This document shows positions 30,730-45,168 of a DNA stretch of 64,000 nt, one piece after another. Every line of letters starts with the position of its first letter. The first letter of the stretch is position 1. This DNA is from an uncultured Chthonomonadaceae bacterium (lineage in GTDB: Bacteria; Armatimonadota; Chthonomonadetes; Chthonomonadales; Chthonomonadaceae): contig CAWFQB010000010.1 in NCBI GenBank assembly GCA_963817895.1, forward strand, positions 150,877 through 214,876. The letters are read 5' to 3'. Below the pieces are notes generated by a model, which worked only from the letters and a program-made list of their open reading frames with translations, ran no database searches and had not been told where the DNA came from. A program made the position numbers and the translations under genes.

Positions 30730-31260
30730 GTGAGCATGCCTGCGCGTACTGCTGCAACATTGAAAATGTACCTGTCGCGCCCCGACGCGCAACTGCCTGC
30801 GCAGATCGAGAGCAGAGAAGCCGCGCAGGAAATCATGCGGTTGTATCTTGCAAATGGAGGCGCAACGTTTAGTTTACGCTTTGGTAATCAGTCCGGGCAG
30901 CGTTTGTACGCGGTGTGCATCTATCCTGAGCGCAGTTTGATCCTTGAAGGAGGTGACATCAGCATTGAGGATATTCACGATTATTTATCTGTAAACAAGG
31001 AGTGGCTTGCTGATCCGCGCTGCTGCATCGGGATATGGTACAGCGAGGAGAGTGATATAACCTATCTTGACATTTCCATCTTGTTGCCGCAAAAAAGAGC
31101 GGCTCTGGTGCTTGGAAAGCGGTACAATCAAGAGGGCATATTCGATCTGTATCGCGCAAAGTATATTCCAACGGGCGGCACAGGCGAACCGACGGGAAGC
31201 ATGCCTGCAATCAAGCAGAGACTACCCATTTTGATGCGTGGGCGGAGGGGAAAGCCGTGA
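30730..31260 (+). CDS. Hypothetical protein
   Basis: Intact ORF with GGATFS and IGIW...YLDIS...LGKRYNQEGIFDL; overlaps the next gene by GTGA. Confidence 0.65.
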   Translation: MSMPARTAATLKMYLSRPDAQLPAQIESREAAQEIMRLYLANGGATFSLRFGNQSGQRLYAVCIYPERSLILEGGDISIEDIHDYLSVNKEWLADPRCCIGIWYSEESDITYLDISILLPQKRAALVLGKRYNQEGIFDLYRAKYIPTGGTGEPTGSMPAIKQRLPILMRGRRGKP

Positions 31261-31538
31261 AAACACAAACGATAAAATTGCGTGTGCGTGTGGGTGGCCT
31301 TGCAGAAGGCAATCCGCCGATGCTGGCCTTTTCCAAACTGGTGGCGCGACCAGACGGCAAAACCAAACTACATTCTCAAATGGCGCAGGTGACGGATATG
31401 GCGCTGCTGGCAAAATTACGCTGCGAAGCGAACAACGGAGTGGAAGCGGATGTTGTTCTGGAAACCCGGCTTTCCAGCGAAGAGATGTCCACAACGCTCA
31501 AAGAGTTCATCTTGGTTCCATCTGGCGTTATGGCGTAA
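31257..31538 (+). CDS. Hypothetical protein
   Basis: GTG start coupled to the upstream stop; GGAGG RBS. Confidence 0.6.
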   Translation: MKTQTIKLRVRVGGLAEGNPPMLAFSKLVARPDGKTKLHSQMAQVTDMALLAKLRCEANNGVEADVVLETRLSSEEMSTTLKEFILVPSGVMA

Positions 31539-31566
31539 AATATGAACAGAATGAAAGGCTACTTCA

Positions 31567-32121
31567 ATGCAGTTACCCATCCGTATGTTTATGTGTCTTA
31601 CACTTCTCACTATCATGTGCATAGGTGGCTCGGCTCAATCTCCACTACAAGGCAATCCGCCTGCTCGGGTAATAGCCGCAGGCAACCCTCTGGTATTGCA
31701 AGGAATACATGACCTTGCAGTTGTTGTATATGCTCCTCCAAAGGAGTTAGCAGCCTTCGGATTAGATCAAACAACATTGCAAACTGATGTGGAATTGAAA
31801 CTCCGTTTAGCAGGGATAAACGTGTTATCCTCAAAAGAGAATGAGCGCACACCGGGCTTTCCTCATTTGACTGTAACAATAGAAGCGATGCGAATGGATG
31901 CTCCCATCCAAGATGTCTTCATGTTTAACCTGAAAGTTCGACTTAGAGAAAACCTTCTCTCTGTTCGTATGCCGCGATCCACTATCCTTTCTATTCCCAC
32001 ATGGGAAGACGGGAGTTCTGGAGTAATAGGAGTGAACAAAATACCGCAATTGCGCGAGAATGTCAAAGATAGGATTGATAAATTTCTAAATGACTACCTA
32101 ACCGCTAATCCTAAGAAGTAG
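31567..32121 (+). CDS. Secreted hypothetical protein
   Basis: Signal peptide; LQTDVELKLRLAGI...IDKFLNDYLTANPK; visibly AT-richer DNA. Confidence 0.7.
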   Translation: MQLPIRMFMCLTLLTIMCIGGSAQSPLQGNPPARVIAAGNPLVLQGIHDLAVVVYAPPKELAAFGLDQTTLQTDVELKLRLAGINVLSSKENERTPGFPHLTVTIEAMRMDAPIQDVFMFNLKVRLRENLLSVRMPRSTILSIPTWEDGSSGVIGVNKIPQLRENVKDRIDKFLNDYLTANPKK

Positions 32122-32228
32122 CGAGTGGACGCATATATTGCACCTGCCTCGTTGCTGAGAATCTGATTTTGCTTTGCCGATAATGGAGGGGAACAGGTTC
32201 AAAACAGAAGCAAAGGGGACGGTACGGC

Positions 32229-32778
32229 ATGGCGATGATGGGAATGGCGAGTTTGCGGAGCAGTCGGGTGCAAATAGGACTGGCGATTGTGGGGGCGGCG
32301 GGCGTGTTCGCGGGGGCGCGGCTTTCCAGAGCGCATACGGTGAGCGGCGACAGCGCATTAACCGTCGCCACTGTGGACGGAACCTGGGAACTGCAATCCG
32401 TCGGGGGAGATCCCATCGGGCCGAACGTGGAATTCGGGCGTCCTTTCGCAGAGAGTGGTTTTCGGGCATGGCGCGGTGCAGGGGGAAACAAAGCTTCTTG
32501 CCGCCAGCGCTGCCGGAACCACGACGATGCCATTCCCCGACCTGAGCGTAGCAGAGGTTCAGGAGAGCGCGGACAGCCATACCGTCACCGTCACCTGGCG
32601 CGGAACCTACGCCGTTTTGCCTAACAGCCGCCTTGACCTGCGCATCGGCAAGGCGCAGTACAAACTGGCCGGCAAATTCAACCCCCAAACCCACCTTCTG
32701 GAACTGGAACAGGACGCCATTCTCACCTACAAAGGCGCGGCGCTGTACCGTCCCACACAAACCCTCGCCCGCAAGTAA
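32229..32778 (+). CDS. Exported hypothetical protein (frameshift near 32440)
   Basis: N-terminal TM, VDGTWELQSV; continues in ORF 32455-32778. Confidence 0.55.
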
Positions 32779-35436: not shown

Positions 35437-37506
35437 TCACAGCGCGTGTTGTTCCAGATAGCGCCGGTACAGGTCGCAGCGGAATATCACTTTGCCGTCC
35501 CGCGTCTGCTTGATGATACCCGCCGACAGCAGGCGATAGTACGAATCCTGATCATTGCGCGGGCTTCCGGCCAGCAACGCCCGCGCGTACTCCACGACGG
35601 CGGGCAGGCGCGTCACCGCCACCAGAAGCCGCTTCAAGTGGTCGGAAAACGGCCCGTCGTCGCGGGCGGCCTGCGCGTTGAGCGTGTCCAAATCCATTTT
35701 GCCGGTCGCCAGCGTGTCCAGCGCGCGGCGGGTCAGGAACGGCTGTCCCCCGATCAGGCCATGCAGAGTTTCCACTTCCTGATAGTTCTTTAAGGGACTG
35801 CCGTAGCGTCCGTTCAGGTCTACGGTTTGCTGAATGTTGAAATCTTCTAAATCCAATCGCCGCCCGACGTTGAACGGCGACTGGTTCAAATCCTGAATAA
35901 ACAGATGCGCTTCCGTGGCATACGCGATTACGACGGTCAGCTTGTTCCAGGGGCCGTCCGGTTCCGTCGAGCGCGAATTGTGCCACGAGCGCACCAGCCC
36001 GAAAAAGTCACTTGCGAACGGGGCGAGGAACAGTTTGTCTACTTCATCCATGTACCAGACAAGCGGCTCTTCCGCGCTGTCGAGCAGTTCGCGCAGGAAG
36101 TTCTCCATATTCAGGTTCGCGCCAAAAATCTCGTCCCACTCGCTTGCAAAGTCGTACTTGAACTTCAACTGCCGGGCAAGGGTGGCGGCAAGCAGGCGGT
36201 AAAACGTTTCTTCTTCCGCCATCTGCGACGAGTTGAGTTTCTGAAAATCCGTTATTCCCACCCGCCAGCCCATCTCTTTGGTATGCTTCGTTCCCTGCGC
36301 CAGCAGACTGGTTTTGCCCATTTGCCGCGCCCCTTTGACCAGCAGAATACTCTCCTGATGTTGCAGCGCGAGTAGAAACTCCTGATCGCAGGCGCGCGGC
36401 ACATAGAAGGGCGAGTCGGGCGGCACGGCTCCCCCGACCGGTTCCAGTTTGACCTCTTCCTGCCGCGCTTTCAGCGGTTCGGTAATGGCCGACAGCAGTT
36501 CCGCCAGCAATTTTTGCGTGTCCCCCTCGCCCGTCCACGCGAACTGCGCGTGGGGACTGATGAGAGTGGAAATCACGCCTTCCGGCACATCCTCGCTGCC
36601 GATACGCACGGGCAGCAGGATGGGCTTGGCCGTCCGCGTAAGTTGGTCATTCGCGATTTCGATCTCAAATTCCAGCATCTCGCTTTGCAGGGATTTGGGC
36701 GAAACAATGGCGATCACCGCGTCCGCCGTTCGGATGCGGTCCTCTACGGTTCTGGCCCAGTTCGCGCTGATTTTCGTCTGGCTGTCCGTAAACACTTCGT
36801 GTCCGCTTTCGCGCAGGCGCTCCTCCAGAAACCGCAAAACATGTTCGTCCGGCTGCTGATTGGGTTTGTACAGCAGGGCGATTTTCTGCGTTTTGCCCGC
36901 CGGCGTAGAAGTCCAGTTGGAAGCGACGGGCGCGGCCTTCATGCGCGAAGGCGGCGCATGGTTTCCGGCCTCTCCCGAGTGGAGGCTGTACAGATGCACA
37001 ACCTGATCGTGCTTGGCCCTGCTTTCGCCCAGCGGCTGAATGTGGGACGCCCAATCCTCGAACTGCTGTAGCCAGTTGGCGTACTGCACCGACATCAAAA
37101 TGTGTCCCGCGTCGCCCATGTCCATCACGCGCTGCGCGGTATTGATACCCTCGCCGACAACATTCTCCTTGCCCGTAATATCAATCTGCCGCTGCACCAA
37201 TCCGCTGTGCAGCCCCATGCGAACGGGCAGTTTCGTCGTGCCGCCATGCAGTCCGAGCGCAACGTCAAGGGCGCATTGCGCGGGCGCGATCACATCGCTG
37301 TAAAACAGCAGCGCCATGCCGTCACCTGTCGGTATCGGCTGCACGGCATTGGCGGCAAACGCATCCGCGAACGCTTTAGAGGCCGTGACCGCCGCATTGA
37401 GCCGACTCAGCATCTGGCTCTGCATCCCCGTCGTTTCGCGGGAATATCCAACGATGTCCAGAAACAATACATGCGCGATCTGCGCCGAGCGGGGTTTATC
37501 AGTCAT
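35437..37506 (-). CDS. Class III nucleotide cyclase + TIR-like + AAA_35 ATPase fusion
   Basis: FLDIVGYS/TGDGMAL/GEGINTAQRV; EVFTD...ADAVIAIVSPKSLQSEMLEFE; GGAVPPDSPFYVPR, GARQMGKTS, MDEVD, SPFNVG. Confidence 0.88.
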   Translation of the reverse strand: MTDKPRSAQIAHVLFLDIVGYSRETTGMQSQMLSRLNAAVTASKAFADAFAANAVQPIPTGDGMALLFYSDVIAPAQCALDVALGLHGGTTKLPVRMGLHSGLVQRQIDITGKENVVGEGINTAQRVMDMGDAGHILMSVQYANWLQQFEDWASHIQPLGESRAKHDQVVHLYSLHSGEAGNHAPPSRMKAAPVASNWTSTPAGKTQKIALLYKPNQQPDEHVLRFLEERLRESGHEVFTDSQTKISANWARTVEDRIRTADAVIAIVSPKSLQSEMLEFEIEIANDQLTRTAKPILLPVRIGSEDVPEGVISTLISPHAQFAWTGEGDTQKLLAELLSAITEPLKARQEEVKLEPVGGAVPPDSPFYVPRACDQEFLLALQHQESILLVKGARQMGKTSLLAQGTKHTKEMGWRVGITDFQKLNSSQMAEEETFYRLLAATLARQLKFKYDFASEWDEIFGANLNMENFLRELLDSAEEPLVWYMDEVDKLFLAPFASDFFGLVRSWHNSRSTEPDGPWNKLTVVIAYATEAHLFIQDLNQSPFNVGRRLDLEDFNIQQTVDLNGRYGSPLKNYQEVETLHGLIGGQPFLTRRALDTLATGKMDLDTLNAQAARDDGPFSDHLKRLLVAVTRLPAVVEYARALLAGSPRNDQDSYYRLLSAGIIKQTRDGKVIFRCDLYRRYLEQHAL

Positions 37507-37564
37507 AAAACGCGCATATCCTTTTCTTTCCAATTGTCTTCCAGGTAACTCCCGGTCACGGGAG

Positions 37565-40500
37565 TTACTTGGAAGACACCTTCCCAAGCCGCGTGTCATC
37601 CGCAAACCATACTTTCGCCGTGCCATCATTACTGCCCGTGACTATGCGCTTACCATCAGATGAAAACGCGACGGATCTAATACCATCCGTATGCCCTTTG
37701 AGTGTCAAAAGTTCTTGTCCGGTTTGCGCGTCCCACACCTTTGCGGTCTTATCGCTACTGCCCGTAACGATGCGCTTGCCATCAGGAGAAAAAACAACAG
37801 AACTGACACTGTCGGTATGTCCTTTGAACGTCAAGATTTTGTACCCGGTCTGAGCATCCCACATTGAGGCCGTGTTATCCTGGCTGTCTGTGACAATCTT
37901 TGTGCCGTCTGGAGAGTAGGAAACAGACCGGATATAGTCTATGTCCCCTTTGAGCATCAACACTTCATGTCCCGTCTGCGCATCCCATACCTTTACAGTG
38001 CCATCGGCACTGCTGGTTACAACGCGCTTGCTATCCGGTGAGAACGCAACGGCGAAAACAGAGTCCGTATGTCCTTTAAACGTCAGCGCTTCCTGCCCGG
38101 TCTGCGCATCCCATATTTTTGCGGTATTGTCCTGACCGCCCGTAACAACGCGTTTTCCATCAGGAGAAAAGGCGACAGTATCCACGCTAATGGTATGTCC
38201 TCTGAGGGTTAGCGCTTCATGCCCTGTTTGAACGTCCCACACCTTTGCGGTCTTGTCACCACTGCCCGTCACGATGTGTTTACCATCAGGAGAAAAGGCG
38301 ACAGCATTGATACTGCCCGTATGCCCTTTAAGCGAGAGTAGGAATTCACCTGTTTGGGCATCCCATACTTTTGCTGTCTTATCGCTACTGCCTGTGACGA
38401 TTTTTGTGCTGTCGGGAGAAAAGGCGACAGAACTGCCAGCGTTCGTATGTCCTTTGAGTTCCAGCACATCATGCCTTATTGTAGCGTCCCAAATTCCTGC
38501 TGTGTTATTGTTACTGTTGGTAACGATGTTTTTACCATCAGGAGAAAAGGCGACAGAACTGACGCCATCCGTATATCCTTTGAATGTCAGCGCTTCATGC
38601 CCTGTTTGGGTATCCCACACCTTTGCGGTCTTATCGCTACTACCTGTGACGACGCGCTTGCCATCGGGAGAAAAGGCGACAGAACTGACGCCGCCCGTAT
38701 GCCCTTTGAGCGAGAGTAGGGATTTACCTGTTTGGGCATTCCATATCCTTGCAGTGTTGTCATCACTCCCCGTGACGATCTTTGTACCGTCTGGAGAAAA
38801 ACAAACAGACGAGACACGGGAAGCATGTCCATTGAGCGTCAGCATTTTATGCCCCGTTTGCGCGTCCCATACCTTCGCCGCGCCATCCCAACTGCCCGTA
38901 ACAATTCTTGTGCCGTCAGGAGAAAAGGAGAAGGATGAAATTCCATTTGCAGCGCCTTTGACAGCTAGGAGTTCATGCCCTGTCTGCGCGTCCCACACCT
39001 TCATAGCGTCCAGGCAACCCGTAACGATGTTCTTGCCATCAGGAGAAAAACCAACAGATTCGACGCCGGTCTTACTGGCATCTATTTCGACATGCATCTT
39101 ACCATCATCAACAGAAAAAGAAATAGAACTGATGCCTTCTGTACGCCCTTTGACAGATAGGAGTTCGTGTCCGGTCTGAGCGTCCCATACCTTTGCGGTC
39201 TTATCGTGACTGCCTGTAACAATCTTTGTGCCGTCAGGGGAAAAAGCAACAGCGCTGATATAATCAGTGTGGCCTTTGAGCGTCAGCAATGCTTCGCCTG
39301 TCTGAACATTCCACACCTTTGCCGTCTTGTCCATACTGCCCGTAACAATGCGCTTGCCATCAGGAGAAAAGGCGACAGAGTTGACGCCGCCCGTATGCCC
39401 GCTAAATATTTTCAAACTTAGATGATTCAGACGGTTCCAATATCCCCACTCGAACCCGCGCCCTTTGTACCCATCCGTCGCCTTCAGCAACTCCAGCACA
39501 TGCGCAACATTGTTGCTCTCCCATTCCCGTTGTATCAGGTTCATGTTGGCGACATACAGGTTGTAGTCGGCATTGTCACGGGCGCGATTCGCTTCCAGCG
39601 TTTTGTCGTTGGCAAGTTGGGCGTTGCGGCGGGCGGCGCGGGTTTGGACAAAGCCATAGACCGCCAGCCCGGAGAGTATCACGGCAATGGCGGTTCCCAT
39701 CACGGCTGCGCGTACCATGCCCCGCCAATAGGCGGTCTTCTGCCGTCGCAGTTCGGCGTCCGCGGTATGGTCTGCCACCCACTTTTTGTCGAACACCTGC
39801 GCGTAAATGCGGTTGCGAACCCGCAATAACCCGTTTTCCACCCGCGCCACGCCGGACAGTTTCAGCGCCGCGCAGAGCGGATTGGTGTCGTCATCCGCAA
39901 CCCGCTTGCCATCACGTACCTGCCCGTACAAATCCAGCACAGCCGCCGGTTCCGCATCGCTTTTAAGCAGCCGGTCGCGCACAAACGTCAGGTTGTTGTC
40001 GCTCTCCTTCGCCGTATGCGTCAGAAACAGGTCGGCGCAGAGTTTGTCAACAGAGGGTGTTCGGTGTTCGGTATTCGGTATTCGGTATTGGGCTTCTACG
40101 ATGGCGCTGCACAAACGTTGTGTAAGATACGGGTGTCCATTCGTCCAATACAGCACTCTTTGCAGCAACTTTTCCCCGTGTCCCCCGTGTTCCCCGTGGT
40201 TCAATCCCTTTGCCAGCGGCGCGGCTTCCTGTGGGGTGAAGTCAGTCACTTCCACGCGCCTGCCTATGTTGAACGGGCTGATGCGCGTATCTTGGATCAA
40301 ATCCGAGGGCGCGGCGGTTCCGAGCAGGCAGAAAGACAGCCGTTTCAGCGCGGGATTGACGGCGCGTTCGACATACAACTGCCGAATCGCGCTGAAAAAC
40401 TCATCCGCAGAAAACGGCAGACTGCGCGTGGCGTCAATCTCGTCCACAAAAACCACAATCGGCGCATCGGAAGCCGGCAGCGCGACCTCTTCCAATGCGC

Positions 40501-40897
40501 CGAACAAACGCGGCAACGGCCCTACTCCCTGCGCGGCCTGCGTTTTCCAGTACGCCAGAAACTCACCCCGCAGCCCCAACTCCCGCCCCATGACCGACAG
40601 CAGGCCCGCGTACCACTGTTCCGCGCTCAGGTTGCTGCCGCCAAGTTTCGTCAAATCCACAAAAACGGTTCGGACGCCCGCCTGCCGCAATCGGCCCATT
40701 GTGCGAACGCACAGGCTGGACTTGCCCATTTGCCGCGAATTCAGGACGTAGCAGTATTCGCCCGCCATCAGCGCGTTCCGCAAATCCTCATCGGCCTGCC
40801 GGGTGACGTAGGAAGAGGCTTCGGGCGGCAATGTGCCGCCCGTAATGTAGAACGGGACTGCGGAGGGCGCGGGAACCGACGCCGAAGTAACAGACAT
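37565..40897 (-). CDS. AAA_35 ATPase + TM + 14 WD40 repeats
   Basis: FYITGGTL, NSRQMGKSS, FVDEID, SPFNIG; TM MGTAIAVILSGLAVYGF; 14 GH...FSPDG...VWD units. Confidence 0.92.
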   Translation of the reverse strand: MSVTSASVPAPSAVPFYITGGTLPPEASSYVTRQADEDLRNALMAGEYCYVLNSRQMGKSSLCVRTMGRLRQAGVRTVFVDLTKLGGSNLSAEQWYAGLLSVMGRELGLRGEFLAYWKTQAAQGVGPLPRLFGALEEVALPASDAPIVVFVDEIDATRSLPFSADEFFSAIRQLYVERAVNPALKRLSFCLLGTAAPSDLIQDTRISPFNIGRRVEVTDFTPQEAAPLAKGLNHGEHGGHGEKLLQRVLYWTNGHPYLTQRLCSAIVEAQYRIPNTEHRTPSVDKLCADLFLTHTAKESDNNLTFVRDRLLKSDAEPAAVLDLYGQVRDGKRVADDDTNPLCAALKLSGVARVENGLLRVRNRIYAQVFDKKWVADHTADAELRRQKTAYWRGMVRAAVMGTAIAVILSGLAVYGFVQTRAARRNAQLANDKTLEANRARDNADYNLYVANMNLIQREWESNNVAHVLELLKATDGYKGRGFEWGYWNRLNHLSLKIFSGHTGGVNSVAFSPDGKRIVTGSMDKTAKVWNVQTGEALLTLKGHTDYISAVAFSPDGTKIVTGSHDKTAKVWDAQTGHELLSVKGRTEGISSISFSVDDGKMHVEIDASKTGVESVGFSPDGKNIVTGCLDAMKVWDAQTGHELLAVKGAANGISSFSFSPDGTRIVTGSWDGAAKVWDAQTGHKMLTLNGHASRVSSVCFSPDGTKIVTGSDDNTARIWNAQTGKSLLSLKGHTGGVSSVAFSPDGKRVVTGSSDKTAKVWDTQTGHEALTFKGYTDGVSSVAFSPDGKNIVTNSNNNTAGIWDATIRHDVLELKGHTNAGSSVAFSPDSTKIVTGSSDKTAKVWDAQTGEFLLSLKGHTGSINAVAFSPDGKHIVTGSGDKTAKVWDVQTGHEALTLRGHTISVDTVAFSPDGKRVVTGGQDNTAKIWDAQTGQEALTFKGHTDSVFAVAFSPDSKRVVTSSADGTVKVWDAQTGHEVLMLKGDIDYIRSVSYSPDGTKIVTDSQDNTASMWDAQTGYKILTFKGHTDSVSSVVFSPDGKRIVTGSSDKTAKVWDAQTGQELLTLKGHTDGIRSVAFSSDGKRIVTGSNDGTAKVWFADDTRLGKVSSK

Positions 40898-41015
40898 AGG
40901 ACACCGCCTTACAGACAAATCAGATAAACATGGTACTGCCGTACCTTTGCGAGTATATTGATCTGGTTGAGATCATAATTGAGGAGAAAAATGGAATATG
41001 GGTTCTTTCTCAATC

Positions 41016-44000
41016 TCATGGCTCAGCCGAAAGGTGAATGACATCGGCAAACCAGATTTTAGCGGTTTTATCTGCGCTGGCAGTGACAAGGCGCTTGCCA
41101 TCCGGGGAGAACACTGCCGAATAGACAGCGGCAGCATGTCCTTTCAGCGTCAGGACTTCCTTCCCGGTAAAGGCGTCCCAGATTTTGGCGGTTCCATCTC
41201 CACTGGCAGTGACAAGGCGCCAGCCATCCGGGGAGAACACTGCCGAATAGACAGGAAGAGAATGCCCTTTCAAGGTGAGAAGCATTTGACCGGTAGAGAC
41301 GTCCCACACTTTGGCTGTTCCATCCCAACCGCCAGTGATAAGACGCTTGCCATCCGGGGAGAATATTGCCGTTTCAACATACGATTTATGTCCTGTAAGT
41401 GTACGAAGTTCCTGGCCGGTTGTGGCGTCCCAGATTGTGGCGCTCCCATCCCAACTGGCGGTGACAAGGCGATTGCCATCGGGGGAGAACGCTACTGTTT
41501 GTACCTTTGCGTCATGCCCTTTCAGCGTAAGAAGTTCATGACCGGTAGCGGCGTCCCAGATTTTGGCGGTTTTGTCATAACTGCCGGTCAGAACGCGTTT
41601 GCCGTCCGGGGAGAATGTTGCCGAGAGAACCTCAGCAGTGTGTCCTTTCAGCGTAAGAGATTTTTGACCGGAGGAGGCGTTCCAGATTTTGGCGGTTTTG
41701 TCGAGACTCCCGGTGACGATGTGGCTACCATCCGGGGAAAACTCCGCCGAATAGACAGCGTCATTATGTCCTTTCAGCGTCAGGACTTCTCTCCCGGTAA
41801 AGGCGTCCCAGATTTTGGCGGTGTTGTCATCACTGCTGGTAACAATACGTTCGCCATCAGGGGAGAAGGCCGCCGATTTAACGTCTTTGTTATGCCCTTT
41901 CAGAGTGAGAACCTGCTCTTGATCCGTAAAGGCGTCCCAAATTTTGGCGGTGTTGTCATAACTGCCCGTGACGATATGTTTGCCATTCGGGGAGAATGCT
42001 ACCGAATAGACTATGCCGTTATGTCCTGTAAGCGTCTGGACTACCTTACCGGTAGCAGCGTCCCAGATTTTGGCGGTTTTGTCGCTACCGCCCGTGACTA
42101 CGTACTTTCCATCCGGGGAAAATGCTGCGGAATAAAATAAAGCAAAGGGGCTTTTCAAGGTGCGAAGCACCTGACCGGAAGAGGCGTCCCAGATTTTGAC
42201 GGTTCTATCTTGACTGGCAGTGACAAGGCGCTTGCCATCCGGGGAAAACGCTGCGGAAACAAGATCCGAGGTATGCCCTTTCAGTGTACGAAGTTCTTGC
42301 CCGGAAGCAGCATCCCAAATTTTAGCGGCATGATCTCGACTGGCGGTGACAATGCGCTTGCCATCCGGGGAGAACCTGGCTTCTTGAACAACGCCTGTGT
42401 GCCCTTTGAGGGTCATAAGCTCCTGACCGGAAGCAGCATCCCAGATTTTAGCCGTGTTGTCATTACTGCCCGTCAGGAGTTGCTTGCCATCCGGGGAGAA
42501 TGCTGCCGAATTAACATCTTTGCTATGCCCTTTGAGGGTCATAAGCACCTGACCGGAAGCAGCATCCCAGATTTTGGCGGTTTTGTCGAGACTCCCGGTG
42601 ACGATGCGCTTGCCATCTGGAGAAAACGCTGCCGACATAACACCATCGTTATGCCCTTTCAACGCGCGAAGTTCCAGGCCGGAAGCAGCATCCCAGATTT
42701 TGGCGGTTTTGTCATCACTGCCAGTAACAATGCGCTTGCCATCCGGAGAAAACGCTACGGAATTAACATCTTTGCTATGTCCTTTGAGGGTGAGAAGTTC
42801 CCTGTGATAGAGATGGTTCCAGTAGCCCCACTCAAAGCCGCGATAAATGCTACTCTTCGTATCTTCTAAAATCTCCCCAACTCTTGCAAAATCGTGATTT
42901 TCATAACTGGTCTGTAACAGGTTCATGTTGACAATGTAGACCAGACGCTGAGCCGCATCGCGCTGTGCTGTTGCCTCCTGTCCGTAGTTATTGGCAACAA
43001 CCAATCTTTTTTCCGCCAACCGCGTCTGGTGGATCGCTACTCCCGCCAGCCCTCCAATGATACTCAGCACGATCCCTGCTAACGCGCCCGCCATTCCTAA
43101 ACCGCGCCGGAACGCCTGCCGCTGTCGCCGCTGTTCCGCGTCGGGCATGTGGGTTGTGGCCCACTGCCGGTCGAACACATGCGCGTAGATGCGGTTACGA
43201 ACCTGCAACGCCCCGTTCGCAACTCTGGCGACGCCGCTGAGTTTGAGAACGGCGCAAAGGGGATTGGTTTCGTCGTCGGAAACCCGCTTGCCCGCCCGCA
43301 TCCTGCCATACAGGTCGAGAAGAGCAGCAAGGTCAGCCTCGCTTTTGAGCAGGCGATTGCGCACAAAGGCCAGATTGTCGTCGGCTTCTTTCGCTTTGTG
43401 CGTCAGGAATAGTTCGCTGCACAAGCGGTCCACATCTTGATTTTCGATTGTGGATTGTGGATTGCCGCTTGACGACTCGGCAATGGCGCGACATAAGCGC
43501 TGTGTCAGGTAGGGATGCCCGCCCGTCCAGTACAGGATCCGCTCCAGTACCGGCTTGCTGCCCTTGAGCCCCTGTGCTAATGGCTCTGCTTCCACTTCGG
43601 TAAAATCCTGCAAGTCTATACGTTTGCCGATATTGAAGGGACTGAGGCGCGTGTCCTGGATCAGTTCGGCGGGCGTGGCGGTTCCGAGCAGGCAGAATGC
43701 CAGCCGCTTCAATTGCGGATTGGTGGCCCGTCCCACATAGCACTGCCGAATGGCGGCAAAGAACTCGTCCGCGCTGAACGTCAGGCTGCGCGTCACGTCT
43801 ATCTCATCCACAAACACCACTATCGGGGCGGCTGTTTTGGTCAGGGCCACTTCCTGCAAGGCTCCGAACAGGCGTTGCAAGGGGCTGAGTTCGCCCTGCG
43901 CTTTCCAGTAGGCCAGAAACTCGCTTCGCAATCCGAGTTCGCGCCCGACCTCGCTTAACAGCCCCGCGTACCACTGCTCCACGCTGAGGTTCTTGCCGCC

Positions 44001-44264
44001 GAAGCGGGTCAAATCCACGAACGCAGTGTGTACGCCCGCGTCACGCAAGCGCCCGATGGCGCGGACGCACAGGCTGGACTTGCCCATTTGCCGCGAGTTG
44101 AGGACATAGCAGTATTCCCCCGCCAGCAGGTTCGCGTACAAGTCCGTATCGGCCTGACGGGTGACGTACGAGGAGGCTTCGGGCGGCAATGTTCCGCCCG
44201 TAATGTAAAAGGAAGACGAGGCCGATGCCGCCATTTCAGGAGGTTCCACAGTGTTCAGGCTCAT
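41016..44264 (-). CDS. AAA_35 ATPase + TM + 14 WD40 repeats (paralogue)
   Basis: Same ATPase motifs; TM AGALAGIVLSIIGGLAGVAI; 14 GH...FSPDG...IWD units. Confidence 0.92.
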   Translation of the reverse strand: MSLNTVEPPEMAASASSSFYITGGTLPPEASSYVTRQADTDLYANLLAGEYCYVLNSRQMGKSSLCVRAIGRLRDAGVHTAFVDLTRFGGKNLSVEQWYAGLLSEVGRELGLRSEFLAYWKAQGELSPLQRLFGALQEVALTKTAAPIVVFVDEIDVTRSLTFSADEFFAAIRQCYVGRATNPQLKRLAFCLLGTATPAELIQDTRLSPFNIGKRIDLQDFTEVEAEPLAQGLKGSKPVLERILYWTGGHPYLTQRLCRAIAESSSGNPQSTIENQDVDRLCSELFLTHKAKEADDNLAFVRNRLLKSEADLAALLDLYGRMRAGKRVSDDETNPLCAVLKLSGVARVANGALQVRNRIYAHVFDRQWATTHMPDAEQRRQRQAFRRGLGMAGALAGIVLSIIGGLAGVAIHQTRLAEKRLVVANNYGQEATAQRDAAQRLVYIVNMNLLQTSYENHDFARVGEILEDTKSSIYRGFEWGYWNHLYHRELLTLKGHSKDVNSVAFSPDGKRIVTGSDDKTAKIWDAASGLELRALKGHNDGVMSAAFSPDGKRIVTGSLDKTAKIWDAASGQVLMTLKGHSKDVNSAAFSPDGKQLLTGSNDNTAKIWDAASGQELMTLKGHTGVVQEARFSPDGKRIVTASRDHAAKIWDAASGQELRTLKGHTSDLVSAAFSPDGKRLVTASQDRTVKIWDASSGQVLRTLKSPFALFYSAAFSPDGKYVVTGGSDKTAKIWDAATGKVVQTLTGHNGIVYSVAFSPNGKHIVTGSYDNTAKIWDAFTDQEQVLTLKGHNKDVKSAAFSPDGERIVTSSDDNTAKIWDAFTGREVLTLKGHNDAVYSAEFSPDGSHIVTGSLDKTAKIWNASSGQKSLTLKGHTAEVLSATFSPDGKRVLTGSYDKTAKIWDAATGHELLTLKGHDAKVQTVAFSPDGNRLVTASWDGSATIWDATTGQELRTLTGHKSYVETAIFSPDGKRLITGGWDGTAKVWDVSTGQMLLTLKGHSLPVYSAVFSPDGWRLVTASGDGTAKIWDAFTGKEVLTLKGHAAAVYSAVFSPDGKRLVTASADKTAKIWFADVIHLSAEP

Positions 44265-44540
44265 GCGCGTTTGTCCTCGCGAAGCGTCCGAATGGAACGG
44301 GAGAGTTCGGTGAGAAGTATATGCCGCTATTATAGCAAAAACTCGCGCAAATACAGGCTGCTCCGTAATGAGATAAGGCACAGCGCAAGTATGAAATACG
44401 TCACATGAGCGCCTCGAACAGAATTTCTCTATCCTAATCCAACGATTACTTAATGTGGTATCCTATTCCAGTTAGCCATGCATAATAATTTGCTACAAGC
44501 GACGTTGCAGGGTCAACGCTAAGAAGCGGAACTAATTGCT

Positions 44541-44795
44541 ATGCCTACCCAAACCTATAAAGCTATAACAGATGCCAACGGCAATATTCAGTTCGCCGAT
44601 ACTGTATTCCTTCCCGCGCATACGAAGGTATACGTCATTGTCCCAGAGCAAACGATTTCCTACGCAGAGATTGTGCCGGAAACCGATAACTTGCTTCCCG
44701 CAACGATGCGCTTTCCCCTCGTTCGCGTTGTGGAAGAGGGACTGACGAAGCGGCTGGTCAAAACCGTTCTTGAGAATGCCTGTGCCGAACTATGA
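44541..44795 (+). CDS. Small antitoxin-like protein
   Basis: TYKAITDANGNIQF...LPAHTKVYVIVP swapped-hairpin-like N-terminus; overlaps the next gene. Confidence 0.6.
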   Translation: MPTQTYKAITDANGNIQFADTVFLPAHTKVYVIVPEQTISYAEIVPETDNLLPATMRFPLVRVVEEGLTKRLVKTVLENACAEL

Positions 44796-45168
44796 CGCGA
44801 ATTTTGCCTCGTCTCCGGCTCCCGTCTCAAGGGTCACGATCAGAAATCCAATGGTGGGCAAAAGCGTCACGGGAGTTCCCTTGCTGATAGACACTGGAGC
44901 CGACGCGACACTGATTCCTCGCGCTATCCTTCCGTTTTTGGATATTTCGGAAGACGCTCTTGAGCCAACGGAATATACGCTCGTAGGTTTCGACGGCACT
45001 CGATCCCCGGCAGTGTTGGTTCCTGTCGAACTGGAGTTTTTGAGCAAACGATTGGCAGGCGAGTATCTTCTCACGGAAGCAAACTACGGCGTTCTGGGCC
45101 GGGATGTGTTGAATCTATTCCGCCTCGTTTTCGACGGTCCACATCAGGTCTGGGACGAAGCGCTGTAA
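44776..45168 (+). CDS. Retropepsin-like aspartic protease
   Basis: LLIDTGADATLIP and VLGRDVLN motifs; start uncertain. Confidence 0.8.
   Translation: MPVPNYDANFASSPAPVSRVTIRNPMVGKSVTGVPLLIDTGADATLIPRAILPFLDISEDALEPTEYTLVGFDGTRSPAVLVPVELEFLSKRLAGEYLLTEANYGVLGRDVLNLFRLVFDGPHQVWDEAL

Follow-up and report, generated by a model that had tools for sequence, protein, structure and literature searches.

The stretch of DNA analysed here, in the following called the window, comprises 64,000 nucleotides of contig CAWFQB010000010.1 (assembly GCA_963817895.1, positions 150,877–214,876 of the forward strand) from an uncultured Chthonomonadaceae bacterium of the phylum Armatimonadota. Its minus strand carries three intact open reading frames (ORFs) which are transcribed in the order receptor A, receptor B and output, and which all contain an ATPase module of the family AAA_35 (PF14516). 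An earlier note, made from the sequence alone, had described these genes as a three-gene signalling or defence module with two WD40 receptors and a soluble effector. We suggest that they belong to a split, membrane-spanning signalling relay of signal transduction ATPases with numerous domains (STAND), similar to the nucleotide-binding leucine-rich repeat receptors (NLRs) and with a regulatory outcome, a proposal that in our judgement stands about evenly between right and wrong.

The gene of receptor A (41016–44264, minus strand) starts with an ATG at 44264, a possible alternative GTG lying upstream at 44381, and its reading frame ends at 41016. It codes for an AAA_35 STAND module (43119–44210; Walker A NSRQMGKSS, Walker B DEID), a single predicted transmembrane (TM) helix (43032–43088) with five lysine or arginine residues among the 15 residues before it and three after it, a helical stalk and an array of 14 WD40 repeats in units of 126 bp (41046–42791), which is predicted to form a periplasmic double propeller. 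Receptor B (37565–40897, minus strand, ATG at 40897, 1110 amino acids) has the same organization, with the ATPase module at 39734–40858, the predicted TM helix at 39647–39703 (five lysine or arginine residues before and four after), a stalk and 14 WD40 repeats at 37598–39409 with an insertion after repeat 2. The output gene (35437–37506, minus strand, ATG at 37506) codes for a soluble protein of 689 amino acids which consists of a class III nucleotidyl cyclase domain (36964–37485), a TIR domain with the residue E322 (36475–36888) and a C-terminal AAA_35 module (35440–36444; Walker A GARQMGKTS, Walker B DEVD). The start of the 689 amino acid form agrees with database proteins; residue numbers of the output are given in the numbering of the 730 amino acid ORF P0001.

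Profile searches of each domain, which the earlier note had named as a check, matched the predicted families. In Pfam the AAA_35 modules were found with E-values of 2e-25 (receptor A), 2e-27 (receptor B) and 4e-76 (output), and all three (90 and 96 bits in the receptors, 256 bits in the output) are above the gathering cut-off of 27 bits. The output is in addition matched by Guanylate_cyc (E 3.8e-5, over the cut-off) and TIR_2 (E 2e-14), and NCBIfam has no name for any of the three proteins (one weak match, below cut-off). Both the two co-oriented paralogues with the motifs NSRQMGKSS and DEID, one TM helix and 14 WD40 repeats, and the soluble fusion of cyclase, TIR and ATPase with the motifs GARQMGKTS and SEMLEFE, are thus present as the note had described them, the latter without a membrane helix.

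The ATPase modules of receptors A and B share 72% identity, and the output module is homologous to that of receptor A over its full length with 29% identity. The same holds for the two types of modules in general, as homology between receptor-type and output-type modules extends across the whole module (probability 99.95, 26% identity). Walker A, Walker B and a GxP motif (GGQP/GHP) are conserved in both subtypes, as expected of STAND NTPases: among the output homologues the Walker A lysine and the Walker B Asp-Glu are found in 120/120, and among the receptor homologues the Walker A GKS is invariant. Two arginines after Walker B are also kept in both subtypes, and we regard these paired arginines as candidates for contacts in trans. 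No solved structure of an AAA_35 module was found, the RecA matches covering P-loop repeats only. AAA_35 is presumably equivalent to the Npun2340/2341 family of the MNS-clade STAND NTPases, an equivalence that we assume here. Paired cyanobacterial genes in the Npun2340/2341 family were reportedly already described by Leipe and co-workers in 2004. The family name is given in PMC8195603.

The genome (81% complete) contains 25 AAA_35 matches of two subtypes. In the receptor subtype the ATPase is N-terminal and is followed by a helix and a variable C-terminus, and in the output subtype a variable N-terminus precedes the C-terminal ATPase. Ten output loci were found, six with BTAD or winged-helix-like heads (one by eye only), two with a cyclase only, one with a TIR domain, and the cyclase-TIR fusion of the window. 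Several of the AAA_35 paralogues are frameshifted or truncated, which may be due to assembly error or decay, and the window genes are intact. We rejected the idea of the three genes as a closed unit, since the 25 matches include orphan receptors of the window receptors' own clade; from the claim of a three-gene module the linkage of the genes stood and the closure did not. One of these orphans, C1:781725-784286, has a non-WD40 C-terminal domain without a Pfam match, and a further orphan receptor lies at C1:844601-848584. At C2:628253-633002 an output gene with a DUF4062-like and a TIR domain and one in-frame TGA just after Walker A is followed by a receptor-type ATPase without a helix and then by a receptor-type ATPase with two C-terminal helices. 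In addition, the genome has 31 BTAD matches, most of which are not AAA_35 fusions and which point to a large expansion of SARP-like regulators.

How regularly the two subtypes occur together was surveyed, as the earlier note had suggested, in gene neighbourhoods of other genomes. Of the 151 genomes of the phylum 27 contain AAA_35, and the 14 control genomes gave no match. In 40 stretches around output-type matches, chosen by hand from a phylum table that already showed some partners, output- and receptor-type ATPases are found together in 32 loci, and a receptor lies within 2 kb of 32 of the 43 output genes, with both gene orders occurring and the pair at times divergent or convergent. The arrangement of one output with two receptors is seen again at the locus L039 and in the cultured Capsulimonas corticalis (output CCAX7_35850, receptors CCAX7_35860 and CCAX7_35880, by locus tags); the closest named loci to the module come from Chthonomonadaceae and Chthonomonadales. 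Outside the phylum, 99 AAA_35 matches are present in 45 plasmid records, mostly cyanobacterial, and pairs also occur in Chloroflexota. Among the plasmid records listed, 28 of 30 contain even numbers of AAA_35 matches (2, 4 or 6), and an output stands beside a TM-WD40 receptor in four of the five plasmid regions opened. With 3774 and 4380 scored matches in the homologue searches the family is large. The arrangement recurs across genomes and is not due to chance, and the module is real and recurrent.

The heads of the 43 outputs are diverse: 17 are cyclase-TIR fusions, 13 carry BTAD and two another helix-turn-helix (HTH) domain, four have a cyclase only, five a TIR domain, and two are unassigned. 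DNA-binding outputs (15/43) are almost as common as cyclase-TIR outputs, a mix which fits general signalling. For 11 of the 17 cyclase-TIR outputs a receptor was present in the fetched stretch. Among the 120 output homologues an N-terminal protein kinase is added in six; these four-domain outputs (P0021, P0066, P0072, P0080, P0086 and P0088) consist of protein kinase, cyclase, TIR and AAA_35.

The neighbouring ATPases have also diverged together. In quick trees of 46 receptor modules and 52 output modules the window output falls into a clade of 11 sequences (support 100) and both window receptors into a clade of nine (SH-aLRT 97), and all seven non-orphan members of this receptor clade are neighbours of an output from that output clade. 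The output of locus L030 is inside the output clade and its receptor is outside the receptor clade. Over 35 neighbour pairs the ATPase distances correlate (Mantel rho 0.786; within-genome shuffles mean 0.652, p=0.0006). As far as can be judged from sequences, this shows that receptor and output ATPases have been paired over the long term, and the pairing of AAA_35 genes stated in the earlier note is borne out both by linkage and by co-divergence.

Such a pattern might also arise by indirect coupling, in which receptor and output serve one pathway and are inherited together, each ATPase forms homo-oligomers only, and the signal passes through a third protein, by proteolysis or by way of a small ligand common to both. 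Tandem receptor-type modules within one chain, found in 17 of 120 receptor matches, suggest that receptor-type modules assemble in multiples, which makes receptor-receptor assembly likely; fusions of an output with a receptor ATPase number zero among those 120, and lone outputs exist (6/17). On the contrary, no conserved third gene was seen in the neighbourhoods scanned, partner clades match even among the paralogues of one genome, and the output has no sensor domain of its own. We thus consider an indirect coupling quite unlikely. The chains with two modules are P0130, P0133, P0144, P0148, P0154-P0158, P0163, P0165, P0167, P0176, P0179, P0181, P0182, P0187, P0205 and P0218; the named ones come from Chloroflexota and cyanobacteria, and P0130 has a membrane region between its modules.

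For the relay that we propose the receptor should span the membrane. The peak hydropathy (Kyte–Doolittle scale, KD19) is 2.08 and 2.22 for the two receptors and 1.42 for the output, which is without a membrane helix. A hydrophobic helix of at least 19 uncharged residues directly follows the last ATPase module in 118 of the 120 receptor homologues, with more lysine and arginine residues before than after the helix in 109 of these 118, equal numbers in seven and fewer in two. On the Hessa scale the best windows of 120 soluble outputs were taken for comparison, and the helix is more hydrophobic than their 5th percentile in 104 of the 105 scored receptors; the other 15 receptors were left unscored as the anchor motif was not found. 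The extracytoplasmic propellers claimed in the earlier note are therefore supported as a predicted topology, with hydropathy and charge bias indicating a helix with its N-terminus inside. Among the domains beyond the helix are a peptidoglycan amidase in L066 (E 6e-44) and, in L003, a carbohydrate-binding module, and an outward-facing propeller is the best reading, again as a prediction.

Alternatively, the proteins might be a cytoplasmic sensor-helper pair of NLR type which reads intracellular ligands, the helix being re-entrant or buried. WD40 sensors of known STAND proteins are intracellular (PMC13581612), the relative L013 has GAF/PAS domains and no helix after the ATPase, and TPR and caspase domains are found after the helix in others. 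Against this stand the long uncharged helix with its positive-inside bias in nearly all homologues and the peptidoglycan amidase distal to the helix in L066, so that we regard a purely cytoplasmic pair as very unlikely. The variants concerned are L013:9207-12179, L033:6003-9389 with the caspase domain beyond the helix, and L003:5560-12528 with WD40, carbohydrate-binding and TPR domains. In L066:5464-12356, which is on a plasmid of Nostoc sp. ATCC 53789, a Trypco1 gene is followed by a trypsin-TIR-AAA_35 gene and an AAA_35-TM-WD40-Amidase_3 gene; here an output of conflict type is paired with a receptor ending in a peptidoglycan amidase.

The sensors of the receptors have been exchanged between ATPase modules. 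Receptors A and B, which are so similar in their ATPases, share 41% identity in helix and stalk and 56% in the propeller. The orphan receptor P0127 (C1:131844), with no output closer than about 390 kb, shares 90.5% identity with receptor A in the ATPase, as against about 41–43% in the propeller. P0125, a protein of a relative, has an ATPase identity of 0.90 to receptor B and a WD40 identity of 0.46 to receptor B and of 0.76 to P0127. An exchange near the membrane helix is the only way to reconcile these four sequences, and at the sequence level it is thus shown that sensors have been swapped by recombination in this region. The notion of exchangeable sensors, put forward in the earlier note, is confirmed in that P0127 and P0125 join ATPases about 90% identical to those of receptors A and B to different propellers.

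Within each gene the WD40 repeats are homogenised, at synonymous sites too: the codon identity at identical residues is 0.55 within receptor A, 0.445 within receptor B and 0.306 between them. The remaining variation peaks at columns −8 to −6, −4 and +12, and +14 is variable as well. The column pairs −6/−4 and +12/+14 flank conserved residues and are 18 apart, the same spacing as that of the codons 7/9 and 25/27 of Podospora HET-E, which are under positive selection and belong to the top face of its propeller (PMC1805685). Variable hotspot sites in highly repetitive prokaryotic WD40 proteins have already been reported (PMC5587647). In receptor A the proportion of nonsynonymous differences (pN, 0.62–0.73) at columns −7, −6, −4 and +12 exceeds that of synonymous differences (pS, 0.57), and in receptor B this is the case at +12 only (0.71 vs 0.64), which is no formal proof of positive selection as pN is near saturation. 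The variable columns and their HET-E spacing suggest a repeat sensor with a diversified interaction face, as in NLR-like proteins.

The output carries two putative enzyme domains, the residues of which were compared in 120 homologues with a mean identity of 59% in the cyclase and 55% in the TIR domain. In the cyclase D58 (101/106), D103 (105/110), R137 (113/113), N163 (117/118), R167 (116/118) and K206 (115/118) are conserved, so that the two metal-binding aspartates and the transition-state Asn/Arg pair expected of a class III cyclase (D58, D103, N163, R167) are in place. The nearest solved cyclases are 3mr7, Rv1900c/LipJ and Ma1120. At the base-selecting positions the window cyclase has I99 and N156 and no Lys/Asp; an adenine-selecting lysine is absent from the five commonest residues at positions 97–99 of the homologues, and position 156 is asparagine in 104 of 117. 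Guanylyl-type cyclases carry a Glu/Cys pair for base selection, which is absent from these positions too. In Ma1120 the ATP-selecting pair is K101 and D157 (PMC4215837). As this Lys/Asp pair has no counterpart here, the product cannot be called cyclic adenosine monophosphate (cAMP), and we rejected the label of a plain adenylyl cyclase; the domain is rather a candidate source of an unusual cyclic nucleotide.

The TIR residue E322 is invariant (120/120) and aligns with the glutamate of the WTEYE motif in 7uxr, although with weak matches (E 0.02–0.07), in agreement with the earlier statement that a glutamate occupies the usual catalytic position. The canonical NAD+-cleaving pocket contains a serine in beta-A and a tryptophan in alpha-C. 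In all 120 homologues methionine stands at the usual tryptophan position and leucine or valine at the usual serine position (leucine in the window). This conserved but altered pocket could mean that the domain makes a signalling product and does not cause bulk loss of NAD+. Thus, from the proposal of cyclic-nucleotide synthesis and NAD+ cleavage in one polypeptide the conserved catalytic residues stand, and the implied cAMP and plain NADase activity are weakened by the substitutions. These substitutions, that is, the missing Lys/Asp pair of the cyclase, the methionine and the Leu/Val of the TIR domain, might even indicate that TIR, cyclase or both are nucleotide-binding or scaffolding domains and not enzymes, and of the cyclase paralogues in the genome one is without the second metal aspartate and another without the transition-state asparagine. 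Nevertheless, the metal-binding, phosphate-binding and transition-state residues and the TIR glutamate are nearly invariant at the domain identities given above, and we consider the loss of enzyme function extremely unlikely.

A role in defence, which the earlier note had left side by side with signalling, has lost weight, as no PADLOC system matches, the neighbours are mostly housekeeping genes and many outputs bind DNA. If the same relay served anti-phage or anti-predator immunity, the propellers would detect virion or injection proteins, the TIR domain would deplete NAD+ to abort the infection and the cyclase would warn or amplify. The invariant TIR glutamate would suit such a role, as would the repeats homogenised per gene and varying at the HET-E-spaced columns −6, −4, +12 and +14, with pN exceeding pS in receptor A, if near saturation. 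The distribution is also patchy: at E<=1e-100, 8 of 31 genomes (30 relatives and this one) have a match, a 97%-complete genome of the same genus has none, and two genomes of the same genus differ with 4 and 21 AAA_35 matches. In addition, there is the cyanobacterial plasmid member with Trypco1 and trypsin-TIR, and the Pucsar preprint (10.64898/2026.08.12.744502) places STAND-fused cyclic nucleotide monophosphate (cNMP) cyclases in a predicted immune clade, to which the window cyclase might belong.

On the other side, what PADLOC system models share with the three proteins amounts to generic TIR or WD40 overlap. Near-full-length matches of defence type were seen for 4 of 147 neighbour ORFs in 4 of 21 loci, a count that has no background set and leaves 22 further ORFs outside the scan; these four are an orphan-type methyltransferase, a PD-(D/E)xK protein, NsnA and a type I specificity subunit. 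The named neighbours are mostly housekeeping genes and by eye, again without a background set, form no defence-island pattern, no match was found in 50,697 phage records, 15 of the 43 outputs are DNA-binding regulators, and the excess of pN at near saturation does not formally prove positive selection. STAND clades with and without a role in defence are intermingled (Lee et al. 2026, PMC13581612). We regard immunity as a serious but unlikely explanation.

We come back to the regulatory relay, which we picture in the following way. The receptor would be a single-pass protein of the inner membrane with the AAA_35 switch in the cytoplasm and the 14-repeat double propeller on a periplasmic stalk, as the predicted topology suggests. 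The variable top face of the propeller would bind a macromolecular ligand outside, probably of biotic or cell-envelope origin, whereupon the receptors may cluster. Once clustered, the receptor ATPases would take up ATP and seed a mixed oligomer that includes the cognate output ATPase, a step to which linkage and co-divergence point. This mixed oligomer would bring the N-terminal domains of the output together, so that the cyclase dimerises and the TIR domains assemble and both are switched on. As class III cyclases are active as dimers and TIR enzymes in assemblies, proximity should be sufficient to switch on the output enzymes. The products would be a cyclic nucleotide, the base of which we leave unspecified, and an NAD+-derived product. 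Several receptors, the distant orphans included, might converge on one output, and by default the cell would answer with a regulated signal or a stress response and need not die. Self-association plausibly switches all the heads seen in the family (cyclase, TIR, BTAD regulator, kinase and trypsin), and this is what a shared oligomerisation switch would select for.

Several points weigh against this relay. The topology is derived from hydropathy and charge rules, the charge bias of receptor B is slight (5 vs 4), and caspase and TPR domains, which are often cytoplasmic, occur beyond the helix too. The linkage count leans upward, because some partners were already visible in the table from which the 40 loci had been picked by hand, and 6 of the 17 cyclase-TIR outputs have no receptor in the fetched stretch (two of these are near contig ends). 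In the tree, the receptors that neighbour other cyclase-TIR outputs are dispersed (L030, L033, L034, L038, L040, L045), and co-divergence is no proof of contact, since it also follows from the joint inheritance of linked genes. The eight cNMP-binding matches of the genome are all on contigs other than that of the window, so that no target of the signal is in view. Furthermore, the TIR domain, the Trypco1-trypsin outputs and the HET-E-like sensor variation point to conflict or immunity.

A more far-reaching version, which we put forward as speculative and doubtful, regards the AAA_35 pairs as a general class of transmembrane signalling that works without kinases, a kind of two-component system made of two STAND switches. 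In the window's version a repertoire of recombining periplasmic propellers would act as variable pattern-recognition receptors for predators, phages or neighbour cells, and one output would, within a single complex, produce both a non-canonical cyclic nucleotide and a new messenger derived from NAD+. If true, bacteria would have a counterpart of Toll-like surface immunity that is operated by NLR components. The module is directly testable, as the cultured Capsulimonas corticalis carries the same output beside two receptors.

Further features of the window are listed here for completeness. A hairpin-forming inverted repeat of 24 bp (37545–37568, no strand) covers the stop codon of receptor B; it is extended by short flanking arms, has exactly three copies in the genome (C10:188421, C2:614824, C14:663644, with C10 being the contig of the window) and possibly represents a small repeated element or a hairpin that stabilises mRNA. 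The neighbours of the module are genes for an ABC exporter, recG and coaD. Divergent from receptor A, an ORF of 84 amino acids overlaps the gene of a retropepsin-like aspartyl protease of 132 amino acids (44541–45168, plus strand), which has a DTGA motif and a weak RVP match below cut-off; the couple looks like a small toxin-antitoxin-style pair, and other loci gave no sign of a link to the AAA_35 module. Several small ORFs without clear Pfam matches stand in a row downstream of a methyltransferase gene (30730–32778, plus strand). A scan for promoters and terminators gave chance level only (5 vs 6.0 and 16 vs 12.7).

The component families of the module are known, and a two-STAND operon with a proposed hetero-multimer is in print for nSTAND2. 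In the literature searched, which included few subscription papers, AAA_35 pairs are nowhere described or tested as relays across the membrane; AAA_35, pfam14516 and Npun are absent from seven supplements of PMC13581612, and PMC7159879 and PMC10907252 deal with related conflict systems and not with AAA_35 pairs. The Synechocystis protein slr0143 (Hat) was dropped as a lead, since the account consulted is silent about its domains. The MNS STANDs in the supplement of PMC8195603 are fusions with TPR-GreAB-PIN or FGS, as far as 10/10 Npun2340 places and 30/44 MNS-STAND places are concerned, whereas the window has TM-WD40 receptors and a separate output. The nSTAND2 two-gene system (Kaur et al. 2021, PMC8195603) is similar in that it has adjacent STAND genes, a proposed hetero-multimer and variable effectors on one of the partners. 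It differs in that the ATPase bearing the effector is inactive, that GT4 or HEPN serve as effectors and that its description includes no membrane receptor, whereas in the window module Walker A and B are preserved in the two types of ATPase and a membrane receptor is one of the partners. We rejected identity with nSTAND2 because the ATPase motifs are intact and none of the three proteins has an nSTAND2 Pfam match; there is only a distant look-alike in the Atlas (rank 8).

With Pycsar and Pucsar the module shares a class III cyclase and a TIR domain within one locus. In Pycsar the product of the cyclase activates a separate cNMP-binding TIR or TM effector (PMC11224242), whereas in the window output cyclase and TIR are fused, a cNMP-binding domain is absent and PADLOC gave no PycC match at E<=0.01. 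As in addition no separate cNMP-binding effector was found on the contig, identity with Pycsar was rejected. The AfsR/SARP and MalT-type STAND regulators resemble the sister outputs, of which 13 of 43 have a BTAD domain, frequently together with a winged helix, joined to the same ATPase; these regulators are single soluble proteins with sensors of their own, in contrast to the window output, which has enzyme domains and no DNA-binding head.

The closest parallel of the sensors is with the fungal HNWD/HET-E proteins and the Apaf-1-like bacterial STANDs, which likewise combine a STAND switch with a highly repetitive WD40 sensor and an effector that is switched on by oligomerisation; in HET-E homogenised repeats vary at the same four relative positions as in the window receptors. 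However, HNWD, HET-E and the Apaf-1-like proteins are single cytoplasmic chains in the order effector, NACHT or NB-ARC, and WD40. In comparison to HNWD, Apaf-1 and Avs, the window module has sensor and effector on separate genes, each with an ATPase, and a helix between switch and sensor. Characterised STAND/NLR proteins sense inside the cell. If the relay proposed here is true, the STAND class would extend to surface sensing, with a second STAND protein receiving the signal across the membrane, and bacteria would possess a transmembrane relay which needs no kinase.

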